Shown: positions 5,622 through 21,354 of the stretch, piece by piece
Position numbering within the stretch: position 1 is the first letter of the stretch
Layout of the letters: each line of letters begins with the position of its first letter
Assembly (NCBI GenBank): GCA_964640935.1
Contig: CAZXIY010000001.1
Coordinates: 12,147 to 50,418, forward strand
Length of the DNA: 38,272 nt
From: an uncultured Methanomassiliicoccales archaeon
GTDB taxonomy: Archaea; Thermoplasmatota; Thermoplasmata; Methanomassiliicoccales; Methanomethylophilaceae
Direction of reading: 5' to 3'
The notes under the pieces: generated by a model
Database searches by the model: none
What the model was told of the DNA's origin: nothing
The model's input: only the letters and a program-made list of their open reading frames with translations
Translations under genes and position numbers: made by a program

Positions 5622-7028
5622 TCACTGAAGGACCTTGACCGTTATGTGCTTGCCCTTGTGCTTGCACTTGGTGAGATCCATGGTCATCCTGTTGCCGAAA
5701 TCTCTGTGAACTTCGACGACCGACGATTCCGGACCGACCTGTATCTTTCCGATGGCCGCGTCGCGTATCCTCGCGTTGCGTATGATGAAATCGGCAAGGG
5801 ACACCTTTCCGTAACCGTCGTCCTTTCCGAGGTTCACCTCGAACTTCACCATTCCGAACACATCGGAGATCTGATCGTAATCGATGACCTTCCTGACGGT
5901 ATCCTTCATGCCGTCCTCTTCCGGAACATCGCGCTTCTCGATGCTCATCCCAGTACGGAGCTCGAACTCCCTCACAAGGTGCTCTTCCTCCGATGTCACG
6001 AACGACACAGCAATGCCTTCCTTTCCGGCACGTCCGGTCCTTCCGATACGGTGGATGTATGTGTCGATGTCATCGGGCATGTCGTAGTTTATGACGTAAC
6101 CGATGTCATCTATATCGAGACCTCTTGCGGCGACATCCGTGGCTATGAGTATATCGATCTTGTCGGCCTTGACATCGCTTATGACCTTCTCCCTTCTCGA
6201 CTGCGGAAGATCGCCGTGGATGGCCTCCACCTTGTAATCGAGATCTGTAAGCCTCTCATCGAGGATATCGACCATCTTCTTGGTCTGGCAGAATATTATC
6301 GCCTTCGGCTTATCGATGTCAAGTATCCTGCAGAGTGCCCATGTCTTATTCCTCCTTCCGACGGAGATATAGTACTGCTTTGTAAGATCGAGGACCATCT
6401 CATCCTGGGAGACGGTGATCTCCTTAGGATTCTTCATGTAGTCGTATGCGAGCCTCTTGACATTCTCCGGCATTGTCGCCGAGAAGAGGAGGATCTGCTT
6501 GTCGCCGGGCATCGATGACATTATGAACTCTATATCCTCGATGAAACCCATATCGAGCATACGGTCAGCCTCGTCGAGTATGAGCATATCGATATGCGTG
6601 AGGTTGAGAACACCCCTCTCGATCATGTCCCTGACCCTTCCGGGCGTTCCGGCAACGATATCGGTGCCTTTTTCAAGCTTCTTGATCTGCATCTCGATGG
6701 ATGCTCCGCCGTATATCGCGGTCGTCTTGTGCCCGGAATATTTCGAGAGCTTGTCCATCTCGCCTGCGACCTGGTTCGCAAGTTCTCTCGTAGGTACGAG
6801 AACGATCGCAGCGGGGATCTTATTCCCGGAACTGATCCTTCCGAGGACTATCGCCCCGTAGGCTCCCGTCTTTCCTGTACCCGTCTGGGCCTGTCCGAAC
6901 ATATCTATGCCGTCGAGACCTTTCTTTACGGACGCCTTCTGGATCGGGGTCGGTTCCTCCCAACCCATATCATCCATTGCTTTGGCAACGTCCTCTGTAA
7001 CTCCGATGTCTGTGAATTTTGAAATCAT
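5622..7028 (-). CDS. DEAD-box ATP-dependent RNA helicase with C-terminal DbpA-type RNA-binding domain
   Basis: Q motif/PTPIQ, AQTGTGKT (motif I), DEAD, SAT and HRIGRTGRAG are present. The C-terminal ~75 aa (GMVKFEVNLGKDDG...ITVKVLQ) resembles the DbpA RBD. The first ATG is at 7028; the ORF-track start at 7037 is TTG. Confidence 0.9.
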   Translation of the reverse strand: MISKFTDIGVTEDVAKAMDDMGWEEPTPIQKASVKKGLDGIDMFGQAQTGTGKTGAYGAIVLGRISSGNKIPAAIVLVPTRELANQVAGEMDKLSKYSGHKTTAIYGGASIEMQIKKLEKGTDIVAGTPGRVRDMIERGVLNLTHIDMLILDEADRMLDMGFIEDIEFIMSSMPGDKQILLFSATMPENVKRLAYDYMKNPKEITVSQDEMVLDLTKQYYISVGRRNKTWALCRILDIDKPKAIIFCQTKKMVDILDERLTDLDYKVEAIHGDLPQSRREKVISDVKADKIDILIATDVAARGLDIDDIGYVINYDMPDDIDTYIHRIGRTGRAGKEGIAVSFVTSEEEHLVREFELRTGMSIEKRDVPEEDGMKDTVRKVIDYDQISDVFGMVKFEVNLGKDDGYGKVSLADFIIRNARIRDAAIGKIQVGPESSVVEVHRDFGNRMTMDLTKCKHKGKHITVKVLQ

Positions 7029-7248
7029 TATAACCAAACCTACTGCCTGAGACTGACTCAGACACCATTCAGCTTACGCGCGAGCGTACTGTAACTGCGT
7101 TTAAATACCTATCTCATAAGATGGTATTTCTGACTGCAGGGACTTGCGATTTTCGTAATGCAGACGTCCGTTGGCATATCGTATCTGCAGTCTGAATGCA
7201 AAATACGTATCGCACGGCAGCAGACAAAAAACCCAGGCATTCAAAAGA

Positions 7249-7284: not shown

Positions 7285-7357
7285 GTGGGCGTAGTGTAGC
7301 TGGTTATCACTTAACCTTGCCAAGGTTAGAACTCGGGTTCGAATCCCGGCGCCCGCA
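7285..7357 (+). tRNA. tRNA-Gly (anticodon GCC)
   Basis: Hand-folded cloverleaf. Acceptor GTGGGCG/CGCCCGC has one G-U pair. Anticodon stem TAACC/GGTTA with loop TTGCCAA (anticodon GCC). T arm TCGGG-TTCGAAT-CCCGG. Discriminator is A. CCA is not encoded. Confidence 0.9.
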
Positions 7358-7361
7358 CCTA

Positions 7362-10414: not shown

Positions 10415-10436
10415 TGCCTGTGAGCATCATTCCTTT
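10405..10436. terminator. 13-bp perfect inverted repeat spanning both convergent stop codons
   Basis: AAAGGAATGATGC (10405-10417), loop CTGTGA, GCATCATTCCTTT (10424-10436). The peptidase TGA (10412-10414) and the rarA stop (10427-10429) lie in opposite arms. Confidence 0.55.
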
Positions 10437-11746
10437 CCGATCCTTTCGAACCACTTCTTGATATATTTCTCATAACCGTTATCCGACGGACGATAGAATC
10501 TCTTGTCCGCAAAGCCGTCCGGCAGGTATTGCTGTTTCACATAATGGTTCTCGAACTGATGCGGATACTTGTAATCGAGTCCTCTGCCGAGGCTCTTGGC
10601 CCCGGAGTAATGAGCATCTCTGAGATACGGCGGTATCTGCCCAGTCCCGGTCTCCGCTACGCATTTCATCGCCTCATCAATCGCGACGTTTGCCGAATTG
10701 CTCTTAGGTGCGCATGCGACGTATGCGACCGCCTGTGCCAGTATTATCCTGGACTCCGGCATGCCTATGCGTTCGACGGCTTCCGCCGCCGATACGGCGA
10801 CAGTCAGGGCCTGTGGATCGGCGTTGGACACGTCCTCTGCGGCGCATATGATGATCCTACGAGATATGAATCTCACATCCTCTCCGGCATAAAGCATCCT
10901 TGCAAGGTAGTAGATCGCGGCATCTGGGTCAGATCCGCGCATGCTCTTGATGAACGCGGAGATCGTATCATAGTGATTGTCACCGTCCCTGTCGTAGCCG
11001 AGCACGCGTTTCTGTATGCACGATTCCGCGACCTTCAGATCCATATGTATGCGTCCATCTGATCCTGGATCAGTTGTCAGAGCTCCGAGCTCTATCGCAT
11101 TCAGGGCAGCCCTCGCATCGCCGTTAGCCATGTCGGCAAGAAATTCCACGGCGTCTTCGTCCATGTCGACGCCCATACCCCCGAGCCCCCTCTCCTTATC
11201 CGTCAGAGCCTTTCTGATCAGCACGGAGATGTTCTCTTTCGACAGGGCTTTGAGCTCGAATATTATGGAACGGGATATCAGGGCCCTGTTCACCTCGAAA
11301 TACGGATTCTCCGTTGTGGCACCTATCAGTATGACCGTCCCGTTCTCGACGAATGGAAGGAGATAATCCTGCTGTGCCTTGTTGAAACGATGGATCTCGT
11401 CGATGAATAATATGGTCCTCTTATGCTCCATGCCCAGAGCATCCTTCGCCTGTTCCACCTCTGTCTCCATGTCCTTCTTTCCGGCGGACGTGGCGTTCAG
11501 CTCTCTGAATCTCGCGTGCGTCGTATTGGCAATGACCTGGGCCAGAGTTGTCTTTCCGGTGCCCGGCGGACCATAGAAGATCAACGAATTCAATCTGTCC
11601 GCCCTGATGGCGCGGGAGAGGAGCTTGTCCTCGCCTATGATATGCTCCTGGCCGACGACCTCGTCCAGTGTCCGCGGCCTCATCCTGCTTGCCAGCGGAG
11701 CCTCCTTGCTGAGAATGTCCTTCCGGGTGTATTCGAACAGATCCAT
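10427..11746 (-). CDS. rarA: replication-associated recombination protein A (RarA/MgsA/WRNIP1-type AAA+ ATPase)
   Basis: N-terminus PLASRMRPRTLDEVVGQEHI, Walker A GPPGTGKTT, Walker B ILFIDEIHRF. The C-terminal MgsA-type region has HYDTISAFIKSMRGSDPDAAIYYLARM. Confidence 0.9.
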   Translation of the reverse strand: MDLFEYTRKDILSKEAPLASRMRPRTLDEVVGQEHIIGEDKLLSRAIRADRLNSLIFYGPPGTGKTTLAQVIANTTHARFRELNATSAGKKDMETEVEQAKDALGMEHKRTILFIDEIHRFNKAQQDYLLPFVENGTVILIGATTENPYFEVNRALISRSIIFELKALSKENISVLIRKALTDKERGLGGMGVDMDEDAVEFLADMANGDARAALNAIELGALTTDPGSDGRIHMDLKVAESCIQKRVLGYDRDGDNHYDTISAFIKSMRGSDPDAAIYYLARMLYAGEDVRFISRRIIICAAEDVSNADPQALTVAVSAAEAVERIGMPESRIILAQAVAYVACAPKSNSANVAIDEAMKCVAETGTGQIPPYLRDAHYSGAKSLGRGLDYKYPHQFENHYVKQQYLPDGFADKRFYRPSDNGYEKYIKKWFERIGKE

Positions 11747-13736: not shown

Positions 13737-15155
13737 ATGGAAGGCACCGAGAGAACAAAAGGAGTTGAGACACTACTAGGCAATCCGAAGAAAGCGGTAT
13801 TGGCTATGTCCATACCGCTCATAATCGCGATGATAGCTCAATCCGCCAACAATCTCATCGATGCCGTTTGGGTCGCCGGATTGGGCTCGAGCGCATTGGC
13901 CGCAGTGGGTTTCGTATTTCCCCTCTTCTTCATCATAATCGGCGTCGGCAACGGACTGGGCGTAGGTACGTCATCCGCTATAGCCAGACATATCGGCAGG
14001 AACGACAAGGCCAGCGCGGATGCCGCAGCCACCCAGGGTCTCATGATGGCCATCGTCGGCGGTGCGGTCGTGACTGTCCTAATCCTGATATTCCTGAGAC
14101 CTATAATGATGGCCCTCGGGGCCGGTGATACGATCGACGACTGCGTGAACTACGCATTCCCGATATTCCTGTCCACGATCATCTTCCTTATCAACGCCAT
14201 GCTAAGCAACCTGCTGAGGGCAGAGGGGGACGCCAAGAGATCGATGAACACCCAGATCCTTTCCGCAGGCATCAACATCATCCTCGATCCGCTTTTCATA
14301 TACGACTATGGTCTCGGTCTCGGTATAGCCGGAGCGGCATGGGCGACGGTCATCGCGGTCCTGTTCCCGCTCGCCCTGATGCTCTACTGGTTCTTCATCA
14401 AGAAGGACACTTACATCAAGATCTCCAGGAAGAACATGCGCTTCAACAAGGCCATCGACAAGGACATCCTCCGCGTGGGGATACCCGCATCGATGGAGAT
14501 GATGCTCATGTCCGTCTTCTCCATGCTCATGAACATGATAATAGTCCTCGTCGGAGGAACGGACAATGTCGCCGTGTACTCATCGACATGGAGATTGATA
14601 CAGATGCTCATGATCCCGCTGATGGCCATAGGCGGTGCCATCGTACCGGTATGCGCTGCCGCATACGGAGCAAGACGGTATGACAAGGTCAAAGAGGCCT
14701 ACAAATATTCTCTGAAGATCTGCGTGGTGATAATGGTCATACTGACGGTGCTAGCTATAGCTCTGGCGGAATACCTGGTCATCATATTCACGTACAACGA
14801 CAGCACGGCATACCTCAAAGATAACATGGTCCTGTGCCTCAGGATCGTTTGCCCGTTCCTGCCGTTCGCATCATGGGGTTTCGTCGCATCCGGTCTGTTC
14901 CAAGCCGTCGGAATGGGTGTCAAATCATTCGTATGCACCCTGGTCAGGAACGGCCTCCAGATACCGGCCTGTTACATAGTGGCCATCACGATCGCGACGT
15001 TCTCCGGCGTCATGTGGGCGATACTGATCACCGAGATCATAGGTTCGATTGTCGCCGGAATATGGAGCGTGCTCGTACTCCGTGCCCTGCTGTTCAAATA
15101 CAGACCGCCATCATTCGAGATCGAGGACGACGATAAAAAGGCAAACAATATCTGA
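13737..15155 (+). CDS. MATE-family efflux transporter
   Basis: About 12 predicted TM helices. The N-terminal PLIIAMIAQSANNLIDAVWVAGLG pattern is typical of MATE/NorM-DinF proteins. Confidence 0.9.
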   Translation: MEGTERTKGVETLLGNPKKAVLAMSIPLIIAMIAQSANNLIDAVWVAGLGSSALAAVGFVFPLFFIIIGVGNGLGVGTSSAIARHIGRNDKASADAAATQGLMMAIVGGAVVTVLILIFLRPIMMALGAGDTIDDCVNYAFPIFLSTIIFLINAMLSNLLRAEGDAKRSMNTQILSAGINIILDPLFIYDYGLGLGIAGAAWATVIAVLFPLALMLYWFFIKKDTYIKISRKNMRFNKAIDKDILRVGIPASMEMMLMSVFSMLMNMIIVLVGGTDNVAVYSSTWRLIQMLMIPLMAIGGAIVPVCAAAYGARRYDKVKEAYKYSLKICVVIMVILTVLAIALAEYLVIIFTYNDSTAYLKDNMVLCLRIVCPFLPFASWGFVASGLFQAVGMGVKSFVCTLVRNGLQIPACYIVAITIATFSGVMWAILITEIIGSIVAGIWSVLVLRALLFKYRPPSFEIEDDDKKANNI

Positions 15156-15868
15156 TGAGTGACATATCGGAGTCGCGGTGCCGATCGATGAACATTACGA
15201 TTGACGGAACGGATATCGGGGTCAAGAGGAAGAATATCCGGAATATCCACGTCTATGTTAAGCCCGACTGCACCGTCGTAGTGACCGCCCCGATGTGGAT
15301 GAGCGATGACGAGATATACGGATTCGTGTCATCCAAATCGGAATGGATACGCAAACATCTCGACAGGTTCGCATCTGCTGAGGTACGCCCTCCGCAGGAC
15401 TACGAAGATGGGAGTACGATACGTGTTTTCGGCGATGACTTCCCGCTCTCTGTACAGACCGGCACAGGGTATTCGATGCTGTTCTCCGACGGCCGCATGA
15501 TCCTCACGGTACGTCAATCCTGCACGCAGGAGCAAAAGGAGAAGTTCGTCAAGAATTGGTACCGCGACCTGCTTGGACGCGAAATAGAGAAGACCCTTCC
15601 TAGATTAGAGATATCCACCGGCCTTCGTTGCAGCGGGTGGCAGATCAGGGATATGAAGACCAGGTGGGGAACGTGCAATACCCGCACATGCAAGATCTGG
15701 CTGAATCTCCGTCTAGCGGAAAAGTCGCCGGACTGCCTCGAATACGTGATAATTCATGAACTGATACATACGCGGATAAAGAATCACGGTCCCGAATTCA
15801 AGAATGCCATGGACATGCTCCTTCCGGAATGGCGTTCCGTTAAGAAGAAGCTGAATTCGGTGAATTGA
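15155..15868 (+). CDS. DUF45/YgjP-like zinc metallohydrolase (HExxH)
   Basis: WGTCN...IWLNLRL...EYVIIHELIHTR matches the DUF45 (M48/SprT-like zincin) signature. The ATG overlaps the MATE TGA by 1 nt (TGATG). An alternative ATG lies at 15188. Confidence 0.75.
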   Translation: MSDISESRCRSMNITIDGTDIGVKRKNIRNIHVYVKPDCTVVVTAPMWMSDDEIYGFVSSKSEWIRKHLDRFASAEVRPPQDYEDGSTIRVFGDDFPLSVQTGTGYSMLFSDGRMILTVRQSCTQEQKEKFVKNWYRDLLGREIEKTLPRLEISTGLRCSGWQIRDMKTRWGTCNTRTCKIWLNLRLAEKSPDCLEYVIIHELIHTRIKNHGPEFKNAMDMLLPEWRSVKKKLNSVN

Positions 15869-15877
15869 GACCGATGA

Positions 15878-16945
15878 TCAACCGATCCTTTTGGTCACCT
15901 GCATGACCGTTCCGCTCCTCACGCCGTCCTTCATTTCCGCGGACAGCGTGAACACGTATCCCCCGTGATCGTACTCCATCCTGGTGTCGTCCCCCATCAT
16001 ATCCGCCAGCGATTCTTCGATCATCGGTCTCAACTTCTCGTTGACGGCCTTGAGATCCTTCTGACGTTCCAACTCCTTGGCGTTGTTGACGTATGTCTCG
16101 ATCATCCCGGAAAGATCGGAAGGAAGGATCTCGACGTGTCTGGTCGTCAGGTAATTCACGATCTTCTCATCCTTTTCTGTCCATTTCGGCGTGATACCTC
16201 TGACGATGTGCTCATCGAACCACTTCTTAGCCGTAGACATTACCTCGGTCATGTCCTTCTTGTCAATGACCACTATACGGCAGTCCTCCGCATTCGGGGT
16301 CCATGACTTGGGGTCGTCATAATCACTGTCCTTTAGGAAACCCACGGCGAAGACTATCTTCGACAGACCGCTGAGTTCAGCATACAGCGACGCCTGGAGA
16401 ACATAGTTCTCAGGTACCTTCGTCGCATCTCCGTTCTCGTCGAGCCATTTGTCCGGATCGGAGGCGGTCTTTATCTCGAGGACCGCGGCCCTCTTGCCGT
16501 TCACCCTGATGTACCCATCGACCATGCCGCCGAACACCCGTTCGGAGCGAAAATGATCGAAACTGCAATCGTATTTTGATACTGGCTCATCCACGCTGAT
16601 AGAACCGTCGCAGGACGACAGGAGATCTTTTCCCAAGAACTGAACAGCATTATCCCTGACATACGAACGGATTATCGGTTCGATAGTATTGCCGGCCTCC
16701 GTGTATTTGGTGGTCTCGTATTCCGAATATATCCTGGCTATGTTACAGGCGGCCTCGAATTCCGTTGTATAATCGTCGATGCCCAGGACAGCGGCCAATC
16801 TGGAACCGGTTATCTTGCCGTGAGATGCCGGATCGAATCTTATGACCTTGTCCCCCTCGTCGATCTCCCTTATCTTCGATTTGTCGCCTTTGATCATGTT
16901 ATCGAACTTCGAAAGGACCGCCCCTCGTATAAAACTTGACGGCAT
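15878..16945 (-). CDS. YqaJ-like PD-(D/E)XK exonuclease-domain protein with C-terminal extension
   Basis: ITGSRLAAVLG, GNTIEPI and MVDGYI...AAVLEIKT fit the YqaJ/lambda-exonuclease-like motifs (D...E-x-K). The start is 15 nt downstream of the DUF1848 stop. Confidence 0.65.
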   Translation of the reverse strand: MPSSFIRGAVLSKFDNMIKGDKSKIREIDEGDKVIRFDPASHGKITGSRLAAVLGIDDYTTEFEAACNIARIYSEYETTKYTEAGNTIEPIIRSYVRDNAVQFLGKDLLSSCDGSISVDEPVSKYDCSFDHFRSERVFGGMVDGYIRVNGKRAAVLEIKTASDPDKWLDENGDATKVPENYVLQASLYAELSGLSKIVFAVGFLKDSDYDDPKSWTPNAEDCRIVVIDKKDMTEVMSTAKKWFDEHIVRGITPKWTEKDEKIVNYLTTRHVEILPSDLSGMIETYVNNAKELERQKDLKAVNEKLRPMIEESLADMMGDDTRMEYDHGGYVFTLSAEMKDGVRSGTVMQVTKRIG

Positions 16946-16960
16946 CGGTGTCGGACGCCG

Positions 16961-17884
16961 TCAAAGAAAGTCAGTCAGCCGGGAGTTGGACGGCCCCTTG
17001 AGACTGACGACATTATCGTCCTTCTCGAGATGCCCCGTCAGCATCTCGCTGTTCACGTCGTATGAACGGTCCCCCCTGGATCCTCCGCCGGGGTTGGCAT
17101 AGCAGTAGACGCAATTATGCCTGCATGTGCCATATGCTCCGACATCAATGTTCTTAACACACAGGCACCCCTCTCTAAGGGGGGCATAACACCTCTCATA
17201 AGGAATTCCGAGACCGCGGAACGTCTCTCCGTCTATGCACCCCCTCCTGCGGATGCCGTATTCGGAAAGATCCGCCGAATTGCAGCATGATGTGAGTTCG
17301 ATGCCGTGAGATTCCGCGGTACGGCCGGCCATGGCGGCGAATTGCACTTTCTCTGTATCGGCGACGCCTCTCAGACACGACCCGTCCGGAAGTTCTCTGA
17401 ACTTCTCGTACATATCCAGGAAACTGAAGACACATCTCTCTGTGTGTCCTTCGAAACCGGAACATAGTTCTTCAAATTTCTTCGTATGGTAGCCGATGTC
17501 CATGCCGTCACCGAATATCACAGGGTCGTACCGCCAGATGATGTTCCGCCTGCCGATCCTATCGGATAATTCGATGAATGACCGTTTTATCTCATCCTTA
17601 TTCCGAACACCTGGCTCTATGTCCTTGCCGTAAGGCGTGACCGTCACCTGGAAGATGTATCTGAAACCCATATCGTCGATCTCGTCGAGATGACGTATCA
17701 TAGGCCCCGGATCCTTAGTTATGAAAACTATGCAATCGACCTTCTTAGGATCCAGATTTATCCGGTACACCACATTCTTGCATACGGGGTTGCGGACCAG
17801 CACATGACCGGCCCTGAGCCTGTTCATGAACCATTCCGAATGGAACGCCGGAACGTCGGTACGTCTGCTAGCCCCGATTATCAT
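16961..17884 (-). CDS. DUF1848-family protein (radical-SAM-like C-terminal Cys cluster)
   Basis: MIIGASRRTDVPAFHSEWFMNRL is the typical DUF1848 N-terminus and fixes the start at the 17884 ATG. C-terminal CRHNCVYC is a CX3CX2C motif. Confidence 0.7.
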   Translation of the reverse strand: MIIGASRRTDVPAFHSEWFMNRLRAGHVLVRNPVCKNVVYRINLDPKKVDCIVFITKDPGPMIRHLDEIDDMGFRYIFQVTVTPYGKDIEPGVRNKDEIKRSFIELSDRIGRRNIIWRYDPVIFGDGMDIGYHTKKFEELCSGFEGHTERCVFSFLDMYEKFRELPDGSCLRGVADTEKVQFAAMAGRTAESHGIELTSCCNSADLSEYGIRRRGCIDGETFRGLGIPYERCYAPLREGCLCVKNIDVGAYGTCRHNCVYCYANPGGGSRGDRSYDVNSEMLTGHLEKDDNVVSLKGPSNSRLTDFL

Positions 17885-17939
17885 GTCACAGAGAACGGGG
17901 ACAGGACATAAGTAATCTGCACCCGATGACCGTCCGCAG

Positions 17940-18623
17940 ATGATCGATGCCAGAAAAGAATTGGACCTTCTCGGGGACGAGAAGAATGCAGAATTCATCA
18001 ACAAGCTCACACCCGGCGGTTTCAGATTCATCGGTGCCAGGGTCCCGGAGGTAAGAGCCCTCGCAAAAAGGATCGCGAATGATGACTGGCACAGATACCT
18101 GGACGAATGGACGGAGACATGTCAGGAGGATGTGATGCTCAGAGGGCTCGTCATCGCTTACGCAAAGATGGGCACGGACGAACGCCTTTCCCTGTACGAA
18201 GAATTCGTGCCGATGATCAGAAATTGGGCCGTGTGCGATTCGTTCTGCATGACATGGAAGGTCAAAGACGCAGATAGGAGCAAGGTATGGGATTTCATCG
18301 AGCCGTACATGCATACATCGGATGAGTTCCAAATGAGATTCTCCACGGTTATGATGATCTCAAATTTCATGACCGACGGATACGTGGACCGCGTGATCTC
18401 AGAGATGGATGCCGCCGATAACGACGGATACTATCTCAAGATGGCCGTGGCATGGGCGATATCGGTCTGCTTCGTAAAATATCCGGAAAGGACGATGATC
18501 TATCTCCGCGGTCCGAACCGCCTAGACGATTTCACCTACAACAAGTCGCTTCAGAAGATCGTCGAATCGTATCGCGTCGATGATGCGACCAAAGACGTCA
18601 TAAGGGGTATGAAGAGGAAATGA
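17940..18623 (+). CDS. DNA alkylation repair protein family (AlkC/AlkD-like HEAT repeats)
   Basis: An all-helical repeat protein with RVPEVRALAKRI, NWAVCDSFC and YLKMAVAWAISVCF, resembling the Pfam DNA_alkylation family. Divergent from DUF1848 across 55 bp. Confidence 0.75.
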   Translation: MIDARKELDLLGDEKNAEFINKLTPGGFRFIGARVPEVRALAKRIANDDWHRYLDEWTETCQEDVMLRGLVIAYAKMGTDERLSLYEEFVPMIRNWAVCDSFCMTWKVKDADRSKVWDFIEPYMHTSDEFQMRFSTVMMISNFMTDGYVDRVISEMDAADNDGYYLKMAVAWAISVCFVKYPERTMIYLRGPNRLDDFTYNKSLQKIVESYRVDDATKDVIRGMKRK

Positions 18624-18641: not shown

Positions 18642-19172
18642 TCACGCTTTCTTATTGAGCTCTTTTATCTCTTTGATGATCGCATCGGCGTTGTCCTTGC
18701 CCACGCGAGCTCCTTTCCTAAGATAGAAGGACCATCCGCGTTCTTTGCATACATCCCTGAATTCTTCGCTTGTCACCGCGATGACCTTTCCCGCAGGCAG
18801 GGCATCGATCAGCATCGCGAACATCTCCTTCGGAACGCATACTATCACTTTGTCGAAAGCACGGGAGATGTATTCCGTCTTGCCCACGAAATCCTTCCTT
18901 TCCTGAAGTTCCTCGTAATCCTTCTTGCACGACGGCACCTCGGCATACTGCATTATGACGTAATTCGCCGGTATGAAACCGAATCTGCCGCTTATGATCG
19001 CGAAAGAGATGTCGCAGACCCTGTCCAACCTTGCCACGAGGTGCTTGACCTCGACCAGCCTGCCGCCGAACATCTCGAATGCACTGGCGATACCTTTCTT
19101 CAGGAACACGTTCGAATCATTGGATATCACCATTACGCGCTTGTCATTGCTCTTTACCGCTTTAGGTTCCAT
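18642..19172 (-). CDS. hypothetical alpha/beta protein co-transcribed with hypA-hypD
   Basis: 176-aa ORF. Its ATG at 19172 lies 1 nt after the hypD stop (19174-19176). No family confidently recognised. Confidence 0.6.
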   Translation of the reverse strand: MEPKAVKSNDKRVMVISNDSNVFLKKGIASAFEMFGGRLVEVKHLVARLDRVCDISFAIISGRFGFIPANYVIMQYAEVPSCKKDYEELQERKDFVGKTEYISRAFDKVIVCVPKEMFAMLIDALPAGKVIAVTSEEFRDVCKERGWSFYLRKGARVGKDNADAIIKEIKELNKKA

Positions 19173-20697: not shown

Positions 20698-21354
20698 TCA
20701 GGGGGGTTTCGCCGAATCGCACATCTTCCTTATGGAGCACTTTCCGCACTTTGGATTGTTCGGAAGGCAGACGACCTGCCCGTGCCTCACGAAATAGCGG
20801 TTGATATCGCTCCATCTTTCCCGCGGAGTGATGCGCATGAGTTCGAACTCGGTATCCTCCGGATCCTTGGTCTTAACAAGACCTATCAGATTCGATATCC
20901 TGTGCACATGCGTGTCCACGCATACCGACGGTATGTCCATGGCATACGACCTGACGCATGCTGCCGTCTTCCTTCCGACCATCGGAAGTTTGAGCAACTC
21001 GTCCGTATCCGACGGGACGACGGATCCATATGAATCCCTGAGGACCCGACAGCATTCTACAATCGCCTTGCCCTTCTGTTTCGGGAATCCGGCCGGCCTT
21101 ATCAGCTCAACGACGGTATCTACGTCCGCATCTGCCAGGGCCTCGATTGAATTGTATCTCGAAAAAAGGCTGTCTGATGCCTTGCGCGTATTGTCGTCCC
21201 TTGTCCTCTGGGACAGTATAGTGGCGATCAGAACATGGAACGGGTCCGGCGGCCATTCGGGATTGAGACCTTCCGAAGAACGGCCGGGGTATGCCCCTTT
21301 GTTGTACTCCGGAGCAAGAGTGTCTAATATCCAGCATATGTCTTTTTCAGCCAT
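20698..21354 (-). CDS. nth: endonuclease III (HhH-GPD DNA glycosylase/AP lyase)
   Basis: HhH motif LPMVGRKTAACV, catalytic VDTHVHR region, and C-terminal 4Fe-4S loop CLPNNPKCGKCSIRKMC. Confidence 0.9.
   Translation of the reverse strand: MAEKDICWILDTLAPEYNKGAYPGRSSEGLNPEWPPDPFHVLIATILSQRTRDDNTRKASDSLFSRYNSIEALADADVDTVVELIRPAGFPKQKGKAIVECCRVLRDSYGSVVPSDTDELLKLPMVGRKTAACVRSYAMDIPSVCVDTHVHRISNLIGLVKTKDPEDTEFELMRITPRERWSDINRYFVRHGQVVCLPNNPKCGKCSIRKMCDSAKPP

Follow-up and report, generated by a model that had tools for sequence, protein, structure and literature searches.

A DUF1848 gene among DNA-repair-type genes in an uncultured Methanomassiliicoccales archaeon: a probable juxtaposition of two older gene arrangements

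Gene content of the locus

A stretch of 38,272 nucleotides of contig CAZXIY010000001.1, from an uncultured Methanomassiliicoccales archaeon, was analysed and is called the window below. It contains a compact cluster of four genes, encoding a DUF45/YgjP-like zincin, a YqaJ-like nuclease, a DUF1848 protein and an AlkD-like DNA glycosylase homologue, which an earlier note had taken for one repair module. On balance we lean towards a different reading, in which two older pieces have come to lie side by side in this lineage and the locus is not one dedicated four-gene machine. The gene calls combine the list of open reading frames (ORFs) of the window with a Pfam profile search:

13737-15155, plus strand: MATE efflux transporter (Pfam MatE, E=3.7e-52), given as context and outside any conserved unit
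15155-15868, plus strand: DUF45/YgjP-like HExxH zincin, 237 aa (Pfam YgjP-like, E=7.9e-57)
15878-16945, minus strand: YqaJ/lambda-exonuclease-fold PD-(D/E)XK nuclease (Pfam YqaJ, E=9.6e-8, 32.9 bits)
16961-17884, minus strand: DUF1848 protein, 307 aa (Pfam DUF1848, E=1e-91)
17885-17939: divergent intergenic region of 55 nt between the DUF1848 and AlkD starts
17940-18623, plus strand: AlkD-like HEAT-repeat alkylpurine DNA glycosylase homologue, 227 aa (Pfam DNA_alkylation, E=3.9e-14)

For all four genes, the coordinates and family names given in the earlier note agree with the ORFs and the Pfam profile matches. The profile searches did not reassign the nuclease or the HEAT-repeat protein, and because all four assignments are correct, the proposed module is not refuted by way of its families. 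The gene calls are well beyond chance; whether the co-localisation is so as well depends on the gene pair.

The mechanically called DUF1848 ORF extends to 18031. Since the homologues all begin with MII(C/G)ASRRTD (MIIGASRR in the window, at 17884), the true start is 17884 and the longer ORF is an artefact. With this start, the divergent AlkD-type gene indeed lies 55 nt from DUF1848. Homologues of the YqaJ-like protein have their first residue at position 16/17 of the window protein, whose residues 1-14 the structure model shows as disordered; the true start is likely M17 at 16897. The two-gene minus-strand arrangement of DUF1848 and the nuclease was described correctly, whereas the 15-nt gap given for it holds with the first ATG and becomes 63 nt with M17, which is still short enough to be compatible with co-transcription. 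The DUF45 and YqaJ-like genes of the window are convergent with a gap of 9 nt. The stop of the MATE gene overlaps the DUF45 start in the sequence TGATG, and this overlap, for which translational coupling was suggested, can be read directly from the sequence. Among the loci examined (numbered L002 and upwards where they must be told apart), this coupling occurs in the window only; the DUF45 genes of L004, L174 and L176 have other upstream neighbours.

Gene neighbourhoods within the Methanomassiliicoccales

The best homologues of the DUF1848, AlkD-like and YqaJ-like proteins belong to Methanomassiliicoccales (Methanomethylophilaceae, Methanoplasma). Ten distinct DUF1848 loci of this order were compared, with that of Methanoplasma termitum (L002) obtained by a separate look-up. 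The order-wide arrangement is FolC - Nth - HypA - HypD - p176 - (AlkD <- Ogt) / DUF1848 -> <- SBF - UbiA - UbiE, where p176 denotes a conserved 176-aa protein. AlkD, with or without Ogt, adjoins DUF1848 in nine of the ten loci, the gap between the divergent starts being 30-55 nt across the order, and in the relatives AlkD is the second gene of an Ogt-AlkD operon with a 4-nt overlap. From this arrangement the window departs twice: it is without Ogt, of which no homologue or remnant was found anywhere in the 38 kb, and it carries the YqaJ-like and DUF45 genes in place of SBF, UbiA and UbiE. Judged by gene order, the divergent position of AlkD(-Ogt) and DUF1848 appears to be ancestral synteny in the order.

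DUF1848 has YqaJ-like and DUF45 genes as companions in three loci only: the window, L004 and L176. All four families, together with Ogt, are present in L004. A YqaJ gene with a convergent DUF45 gene is also found in L174, where DUF1848 does not adjoin the pair and, from the gene order of L083, probably lies about 8 kb off on the same contig. In L175 the YqaJ-like gene is located 3.6 kb downstream of DUF1848, and DUF45 is missing. The convergent pair is thus seen in four of five loci (the window, L004, L174 and L176, versus L175). The long-form homologues of the nuclease that we found are all from Methanomassiliicoccales, and the short-form homologues occur in six places (L177-L182) which share one identical neighbourhood unrelated to the DUF1848 context. 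That YqaJ directly adjoins DUF1848 in the window seems to be derived, the genes once lying between them having been lost.

Neighbourhoods of DUF1848 and AlkD genes in other genomes

A larger sample comprised 80 DUF1848 loci from as many species (L003-L082; three from Methanomassiliicoccales, three from other methanogens and 74 from bacteria), in which all flank ORFs were subjected to single-sequence and profile searches. From the other side, 85 loci of the AlkD subfamily were collected, 80 of them metagenome loci, mostly clostridial, and five genome look-ups. Among the 80 DUF1848 loci, AlkD-like or Ogt genes adjoin DUF1848 only in those of Methanomassiliicoccales and in the Bacillota genome L022. 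In the 77 loci outside the order, the 5 kb on either side of DUF1848 hold neither a YqaJ-like nor a DUF45 gene, and the nearest DUF45-like ORF is 7.4 kb away (L050). The commonest annotated neighbours are GNAT acetyltransferases (4 of 150). Clusters that recur within 5 kb of DUF1848, such as histidine kinases, ABC transporters, AraC regulators and aminotransferases, were judged to be generic background.

In the AlkD sample, Ogt is found near AlkD in 14 of 85 loci, mostly directly adjoining, and an AP_endonuc_2 gene of endonuclease IV (EndoIV)-like type adjoins AlkD in four. DUF1848 and DUF45 each adjoin AlkD once, the former in L116 and the latter in Caproiciproducens (L089:5001-6377), where a YgjP-like gene follows AlkD after 12 nt. 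A YqaJ-like gene was not detected near AlkD in any of the 85 loci.

Two bacterial operons combine AlkD with DUF1848. That of L022 reads Ogt, AP_endonuc_2, AlkD and DUF1848 on one strand with gaps of -4 to 29 nt. The other, on a human-gut contig (L116:343-7605), consists of a gene for a 1882-aa superfamily 1 (SF1) helicase with DUF4011, AAA_11/12, MTES_1575 REase and DUF3320 domains, followed on the same strand by AlkD and DUF1848 with gaps of 3-10 nt. The two DUF1848 proteins share only 41% identity with each other and 39-42% with that of the window. In a rough neighbour-joining tree they stand next to a monophyletic archaeal clade, and clostridial AlkD homologues are about 50% identical to the archaeal protein. 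Because of this tree position and the clostridial affinity of the archaeal AlkD, the sequences suggest that the AlkD-DUF1848 pair may have been exchanged between Clostridia and Methanomassiliicoccales and then long retained. With about 3,000 genes and one AlkD per genome, we roughly estimate that fewer than 0.1 adjacencies would be expected per about 80 loci; as one case was seen from each direction, the pairing is above chance, though rare. For the neighbourhood linkage which the earlier note proposed to check, this means that DUF1848 and alkylation-repair genes are indeed associated beyond chance and the four families together are not. All four occur only in the window and L004, and in none of the 77 DUF1848 loci outside the order or the 85 AlkD loci, a distribution that does not support a conserved four-gene repair module.

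The DUF1848 protein

To our knowledge DUF1848 has never been characterised, and our literature searches found no functional study of DUF1848/PF08902, a family of about 5,000 clusters at 50% identity. The window protein scores 307.8 bits against a cut-off of 30.5, its residues 2-263 covering profile positions 1-262 of 262. Across all 84 archaeal and bacterial sequences compared, the latter from many phyla, seven cysteines (C200, C216, C240, C242, C254, C258 and C261) as well as R118, D120, G249, Y260 and Y262 are invariant. The segment C254-RHN-C258-VY-C261 forms a CX3CX(aromatic)C motif of the type known from radical S-adenosylmethionine (SAM) enzymes, with Y260 as the aromatic residue. It is positioned after the last barrel strand near the C-terminus and not, as in radical SAM enzymes, N-terminally after the first beta-strand.

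Matches to the corresponding Pfam profiles stay below threshold (about 14-18 bits versus a cut-off of 29.5 for Radical_SAM PF04055, at most 17 versus 26.7 for PF19238). They are confined to residues of about 245-275 and profile positions 4-43; positions 4-30 of the Radical_SAM profile are matched in 12 of 21 DUF1848 members and Radical_SAM_2 in 14 of 21. The AlphaFold2 (AF2) model (mean predicted local distance difference test score, pLDDT, 85) alternates beta and alpha elements and is TIM-barrel-like. Foldseek returned weak TIM-barrel matches (E about 1e-2), among which those of highest probability include the radical SAM enzymes Elp3 and the pyruvate formate-lyase activating enzyme (PFL-AE). 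A sequence search against solved structures gave nothing at E<=1 beyond noise. In the BFVD database, the best structural match is A0A7M1RU68_5, a segment of a giant crAss-like phage protein (uncultured phage cr272_1; E=1.7e-6, TM-score on the query 0.63). Several radical SAM proteins of phages rank behind it as weak matches. DUF1848-like genes are also present in the 735-kb uncultured phage genome LR756501.

The RTasDUF1848 model of PADLOC, which lists it under defence reverse transcriptases (DRT), matches the window protein with E=1e-34. DUF1848 has been reported as the associated accessory gene cluster of UG25, a fusion of methyltransferase and reverse transcriptase (RT). Further hints come from fused domains. 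In the 410-aa protein P0385, DUF1848 is followed at about residues 300-360 by a PcrA/UvrD Tudor domain (5dma, E=1.7e-6; also 7egs and 6yi2, E about 2e-6). This domain binds RNA polymerase, and the fusion would tie the DUF1848 family to the biology of DNA-repair helicases. Four more extensions were judged by eye: a second segment with its own CX3CX2C (P0442) and a C-terminal segment of about 300 aa with the sequence YIDGFAGSG (P0393), both without a match in the Protein Data Bank (PDB), a GNAT-like segment (P0372) and a 240-aa N-terminal extension (P0459). The extra domain of P0393 may resemble three-Cys-motif partner proteins; it has no similarity to the methyltransferase-like partner family described below. 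On a plasmid of Roseburia sp. 831b (L184:3322-5942), genes for a macrodomain protein-ADP-ribose hydrolase and a Sir2 protein precede DUF1848 on the same strand.

A methyltransferase-like partner of DUF1848

One protein family alone recurs beside DUF1848 across phyla. Its members have about 270-400 aa and no Pfam assignment, and with an iterated profile the gene was found to adjoin DUF1848 in 12 of 80 loci. In eight of these it directly precedes DUF1848 in the same orientation, and the two genes often overlap by 4 nt. Partner genes are located at L019:9168-10004, L023:9168-10004, L053:94-1005 and L063:6408-7493, further in L014, L017, L036, L043, L059, L065, L067 and L070, and on other contigs at L183:8207-9004, L185:7146-8000, L186:426-1631 and L187:3200-4456. 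The profile has no match in the 85 AlkD control loci, and no such gene was found in the window. In L185, L186 and L187, contigs outside the profile building, the partner was found again by DUF1848.

Among the partner motifs are YxxRY and SFGxGxGxD, the latter corresponding to the glycine-rich motif I of Rossmann-fold SAM methyltransferases. Weak matches point to Methyltransf_31 (2e-5, 6e-6), Methyltransf_33, Methyltransf_23 and Rsm22, and in the PDB to arsenic methyltransferases and N-methyltransferases.

The pair of partner and DUF1848 is seen several times in a mobile context. Of 5,426 complete Escherichia coli genomes, 30 carry the pair; in strain S10 (L183, NZ_CP010229.1, 903560-905289) it lies inside an integrative and conjugative element (ICE), on the opposite strand among conjugation genes. 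The gene order is integrase, partner, DUF1848 in L185 and partner, DUF1848, transposase in L186. A faecal virome contig (L187:3200-10555) carries on the same strand the partner, a UvrD-like helicase, a 769-aa protein without a Pfam match, DUF1848 and a Schlafen AlbA_2/HATPase_c_4 protein; this five-gene array looks like a defence system. DUF1848 genes with a partner are scattered over the whole DUF1848 tree. We found no paper mentioning the partner, which is previously unreported and a stronger lead for DUF1848 than the four-gene module.

The AlkD-like glycosylase and the intergenic region

The AlkD-like protein reaches 53.3 bits with DNA_alkylation (PF08713; cut-off 21). A family profile built from 28 homologues aligns end to end with AlkD of Bacillus cereus (profile positions 4-215 with residues 10-232 of 3bvs, E=1e-4). 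The residues W96, D100 and W172, invariant in the 28 homologues, correspond in this alignment to the WxxxD and GW sites of 3bvs, namely W109, D113 and W187, which we take to be the catalytic residues of the B. cereus enzyme. Some members of the AlkD/HEAT-like-repeat family are inactive. Judged from its family, the window protein with its Trp/Asp/Trp triad most likely excises cationic alkylpurines.

In its centre the intergenic region contains an AT-rich element, cataagtaat (17907-17916), about 26-28 nt from the starts of both DUF1848 and AlkD. In DUF1848 orientation the element reads ATTACTTAT; the window, L083 and L175 all have it about 26 nt ahead of the start of DUF1848. L085 and L087 have a shorter ATACTTAT, which in L087 precedes an inserted zinc-ribbon gene and not DUF1848. 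The element may be a shared bidirectional archaeal TATA box for leaderless divergent transcripts. In the relatives, Ogt separates AlkD from the TATA-like element; in the window Ogt has been lost and the spacing is still about 55 nt.

The YqaJ-like nuclease and the DUF45 zincin

The YqaJ-like protein exceeds the Pfam cut-off of 22 bits, and D143, E157 and K159 are invariant as a D...ExK motif. Its AF2 model (pLDDT 90.6) is matched by Foldseek with probability 1.0 to lambda exonuclease (1avq), LHK-Exo (3syy) and the phage-related exonuclease 3k93, with TM-scores on the target of 0.53-0.68, and a sequence search detected no relative among solved structures. NCBIfam profiles of Mollicutes are matched below their cut-offs (MPN551, E=1e-41, 139.8 versus 250 bits; MAGa7180, E=4e-36, 124.6 versus 225 bits), and the protein would accordingly be a relative and not a member of these families. 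The nuclease core is conserved to about residue 265. Because short-form homologues stop there, the C-terminal extension comprises about 85-90 aa and not the approximately 150 aa previously assumed; in the model it consists of two long helices and a three-stranded sheet. With the YqaJ-RecT modules of lambda Red/RecET type the window nuclease shares the lambda-exonuclease fold and the D...ExK motif. Unlike these, it has the extra C-terminal domain and DUF1848 and DUF45 as neighbours, and no single-strand annealing protein adjoins the gene in the window, L004 or L176. A viral origin of the nuclease was considered and rejected, as no relative was found in a scan of the IMG/VR viral contigs.

The DUF45 protein (PF01863) scores 193 bits versus a cut-off of 26 over residues 29-235 and shows HELIH in its translation. 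It also matches the SprT-like profile above threshold (33.5 versus 25.6 bits), a match covering only about 59 residues (163-221), the HExxH region. Among solved structures, its C-terminal part comes closest to the minigluzincin projannalysin (4jix, E=4.7e-5). The protein is similar to SprT/Wss1/Spartan proteases in its HExxH zincin helix; it differs from them in that the full-length match is YgjP-like and that no DNA-binding domain was detected by the Pfam search. Literature searches found no functional study of MPN551 or DUF45.

Flanking genes

Apart from the cluster, the following features of the window were considered:

5622-7037, minus strand: DEAD/DbpA helicase
7285-7359: tRNA-Gly, the sole structured RNA found near the cluster
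10427-11746, minus strand: RarA/MgsA AAA+ ATPase
18642-19172, minus strand: p176, the conserved 176-aa protein between HypD and AlkD
20698-21354, minus strand: endonuclease III-type HhH-GPD glycosylase/apurinic-apyrimidinic lyase (Pfam HhH-GPD, E=1.3e-22)

On one flank the order is p176, HypD, HypA, the endonuclease III-type glycosylase, a FolC-like ligase and an Asn-synthase-like gene; the other flank holds a nicotinate phosphoribosyltransferase (NAPRTase), the RarA/MgsA ATPase and further housekeeping genes. The endonuclease III-type gene, 2 kb from AlkD, belongs to the same conserved syntenic block and has the same place in L087 and L088. For p176 no match was obtained in Pfam, NCBIfam or PADLOC; its homologues occupy the equivalent position in L002-L005, L101 and L136. 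L175 and L176 likewise have a DEAD/DbpA helicase gene close to their YqaJ-like gene, a sign of regional synteny. Base composition is flat across the window, and neither composition nor gene content indicates a genomic island or a prophage.

Discussion

In the reading that we favour, with the locus as a meeting of two older pieces, the first piece would be an Ogt-AlkD operon divergent from DUF1848 across a shared promoter region of about 50 nt, ancestral in Methanomassiliicoccales. In the rough tree it groups with the AlkD->DUF1848 operons of clostridial type. Because Ogt was lost in this genome, AlkD now starts 55 nt from DUF1848. The second piece would be the convergent YqaJ-like/DUF45 pair, which only some members of the order carry and which in the window is placed directly behind DUF1848, where most relatives have SBF followed by UbiA and UbiE. 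The nuclease gene is probably co-transcribed with DUF1848. Nuclease and zincin may aid this lineage by processing DNA ends or protein adducts; the comparative evidence gives no sign of them as obligate partners.

The first piece can be compared to the bacterial repair operons that combine Ogt or Ada with AlkA or AlkD. Common features are the overlapping Ogt->AlkD genes of the relatives, a pair found adjoining in 14 of the 85 AlkD loci, and the catalytic Trp/Asp/Trp positions which the window AlkD-like protein retains. In contrast to these operons, the window is without Ogt, an Ada-type regulator or AlkB, and the DUF1848 protein, a putative iron-sulphur (Fe-S) protein, is encoded on the opposite strand from a shared promoter region.

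Several observations weigh against this reading. The order-wide block also keeps the functionally unrelated HypA, HypD, SBF and UbiA, and since it does so, adjacency within the order is weak evidence alone and possibly a matter of simple inheritance. The archaeal AlkD loci L101 and L136 are without an adjoining DUF1848. Outside the order, the AlkD-DUF1848 pair is seen in one of 77 DUF1848 loci (L022) and one of 85 AlkD loci (L116), and the 150 immediate neighbours of DUF1848 fall into 148 Pfam families, most DUF1848 genes being solitary among unrelated genes. With regard to the second piece, L176 and L004 carry the trio DUF1848-YqaJ-DUF45 again amid other flanking genes, which to some degree favours a functional link between these three. 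Furthermore, DUF1848 is no more than a putative radical SAM protein, the profile matches being sub-threshold and covering the Cys loop only, and the partner family is a putative SAM methyltransferase on the strength of its GxGxG motif and sub-threshold matches.

The best surviving alternative, unlikely in our view but deserving some weight, attributes no functional meaning to the cluster: gene order handed down from ancestors, together with deletions in a compact genome, would have produced it, and DUF1848 would be an Fe-S enzyme of small-molecule or cofactor metabolism. It fits that none of the 148 neighbouring Pfam families in the 80 genomes dominates, that the clusters recurring within 5 kb (histidine kinases, ABC transporters, AraC) are generic, that the archaeal block retains unrelated genes too, and that GNAT, the most frequent annotated neighbour, also appears in one fusion judged by eye. 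On the other hand, two divergent bacterial operons tie DUF1848 to AlkD together with Ogt and an EndoIV-like gene or with a helicase-nuclease, one DUF1848 is fused to a PcrA/UvrD Tudor domain, the family is associated with the UG25 methylase-RT, and its methyltransferase-like partner is found on an ICE and beside an integrase or a transposase.

We consider it improbable that the four genes constitute a single alkylation/adduct repair module, in which AlkD would excise bases, DUF1848 perform the key chemistry, DUF45 remove crosslinks and YqaJ resect ends. The tight spacing in the window, the renewed occurrence of all four genes in L004, the order DUF1848->YqaJ-><-DUF45 in L176, which is without AlkD and lies amid quite different flanking genes, the AlkD->YgjP-like pair of Caproiciproducens and the above-threshold SprT-like match of DUF45 would agree with such a module. 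Yet YqaJ-like and DUF45 genes are missing within 5 kb of DUF1848 throughout the 77 loci outside the order and from most DUF1848 loci within it, and in the AlkD loci they number 0 and 1 of 85, respectively. Where the YqaJ-like gene does occur, it may be 3.6 kb from DUF1848 (L175) or not adjoin it (L174), and its short-form homologues stand in unrelated contexts. The SprT-like match is limited to the HExxH region of about 59 aa, and the DUF45 gene is transcribed towards the nuclease gene instead of in its direction and, in the window, is coupled to the MATE gene. The part of 'enzymatic core' assigned to DUF1848 in the earlier note is likewise inferred; family-wide its commonest partner is the putative methyltransferase and not a nuclease, DUF45 or AlkD.

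Coming back to the juxtaposition that we favour, its central protein is predicted to be an Fe-S enzyme, with the CX3CXYC loop and four more invariant cysteines on a TIM-barrel-like model core. From the partners with which DUF1848 is associated non-randomly (AlkD/Ogt/EndoIV-like genes, a methyltransferase-like protein, a methylase-RT and the domain of a repair helicase), we infer that it holds one or two Fe-S clusters and has nucleic acid as its substrate, most probably DNA that is methylated or alkylated. The substrate assignment would follow from these recurring genomic partners, and a link of DUF1848 to DNA methylation or alkylation is plausible. Several DUF1848 proteins are named COG1533 'DNA repair photolyase' by the Joint Genome Institute (JGI). 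With spore photoproduct lyase SplB (COG1533), DUF1848 shares the CX3CXYC motif with an aromatic residue before the last cysteine, the TIM-barrel-like fold and, in some lineages, a DNA-repair gene context. Unlike in SplB, the Cys motif is C-terminal and not in the first beta-alpha loop, four extra cysteines are invariant, a sequence match to solved structures is missing and the Radical_SAM matches are sub-threshold and restricted to the loop.

A more specific proposal, doubtful at present, is that DUF1848 could be an O2-independent radical-SAM-type enzyme which repairs or otherwise processes wrongly methylated DNA bases such as 1-methyladenine and 3-methylcytosine, as an anaerobe counterpart of AlkB. 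How AlkD-type glycosylases and Ogt repair alkylation damage is well understood, and the O2-dependent AlkB route cannot work in strict anaerobes. The predominance of anaerobes among the sampled DUF1848 carriers makes the proposal attractive. It would explain the operons with AlkD, Ogt and EndoIV-like genes, the pairing with methyltransferases in mobile elements and UG25, the solitary housekeeping copies and the abundance in anaerobes. By analogy to the co-evolution of DNMT and ALKB2 (reviewed in PMC9246332), one may speculate that DUF1848 cleans up off-target methylation beside methyltransferases.

That DUF1848 is the effector of a mobile restriction-modification-like, hypermodification or defence cassette, with the archaeal copy domesticated or solitary and the nuclease and DUF45 as defence-type genes, is suggested by the partner-DUF1848 pair as cargo of the E. 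coli ICE and beside integrase (L185), transposase (L186) and the helicase/Schlafen-AlbA_2 array (L187), by the PADLOC listing under DRT and by the scatter of partnered genes over the tree, as expected of a mobile cassette, but is highly improbable for this locus, given that a methyltransferase partner, an integrase and other defence genes are all missing from the window, that the archaeal DUF1848 keeps a fixed chromosomal position across the order, that about 80% of DUF1848 genes in the 80 loci are without partner and AlkD although a toxic restriction-type effector should not stand alone so often, and that the AlkD/Ogt/EndoIV-like operons indicate repair. For the DUF1848 family at large, such a role as mobile modification or defence effector is the main alternative. 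To the UG25 system itself the window is similar in that its DUF1848 matches RTasDUF1848, and the stand-alone partner represents a similar methyltransferase-DUF1848 association; it differs in that no RT or methyltransferase gene is located beside DUF1848 and that the position is conserved across the order and not island-like.

The four-gene 'module' is mostly a local accident of gene order and of little general interest. What emerges from the locus is DUF1848 as a testable candidate enzyme, with a radical-SAM-type loop in an unusual C-terminal position, which in archaea and Clostridia is repeatedly found beside genes of alkylation repair. Should DUF1848 prove to act on methylated DNA, the accessory gene of a defence reverse transcriptase would be explained, and the family would represent a new enzyme class for anaerobic DNA repair or modification.

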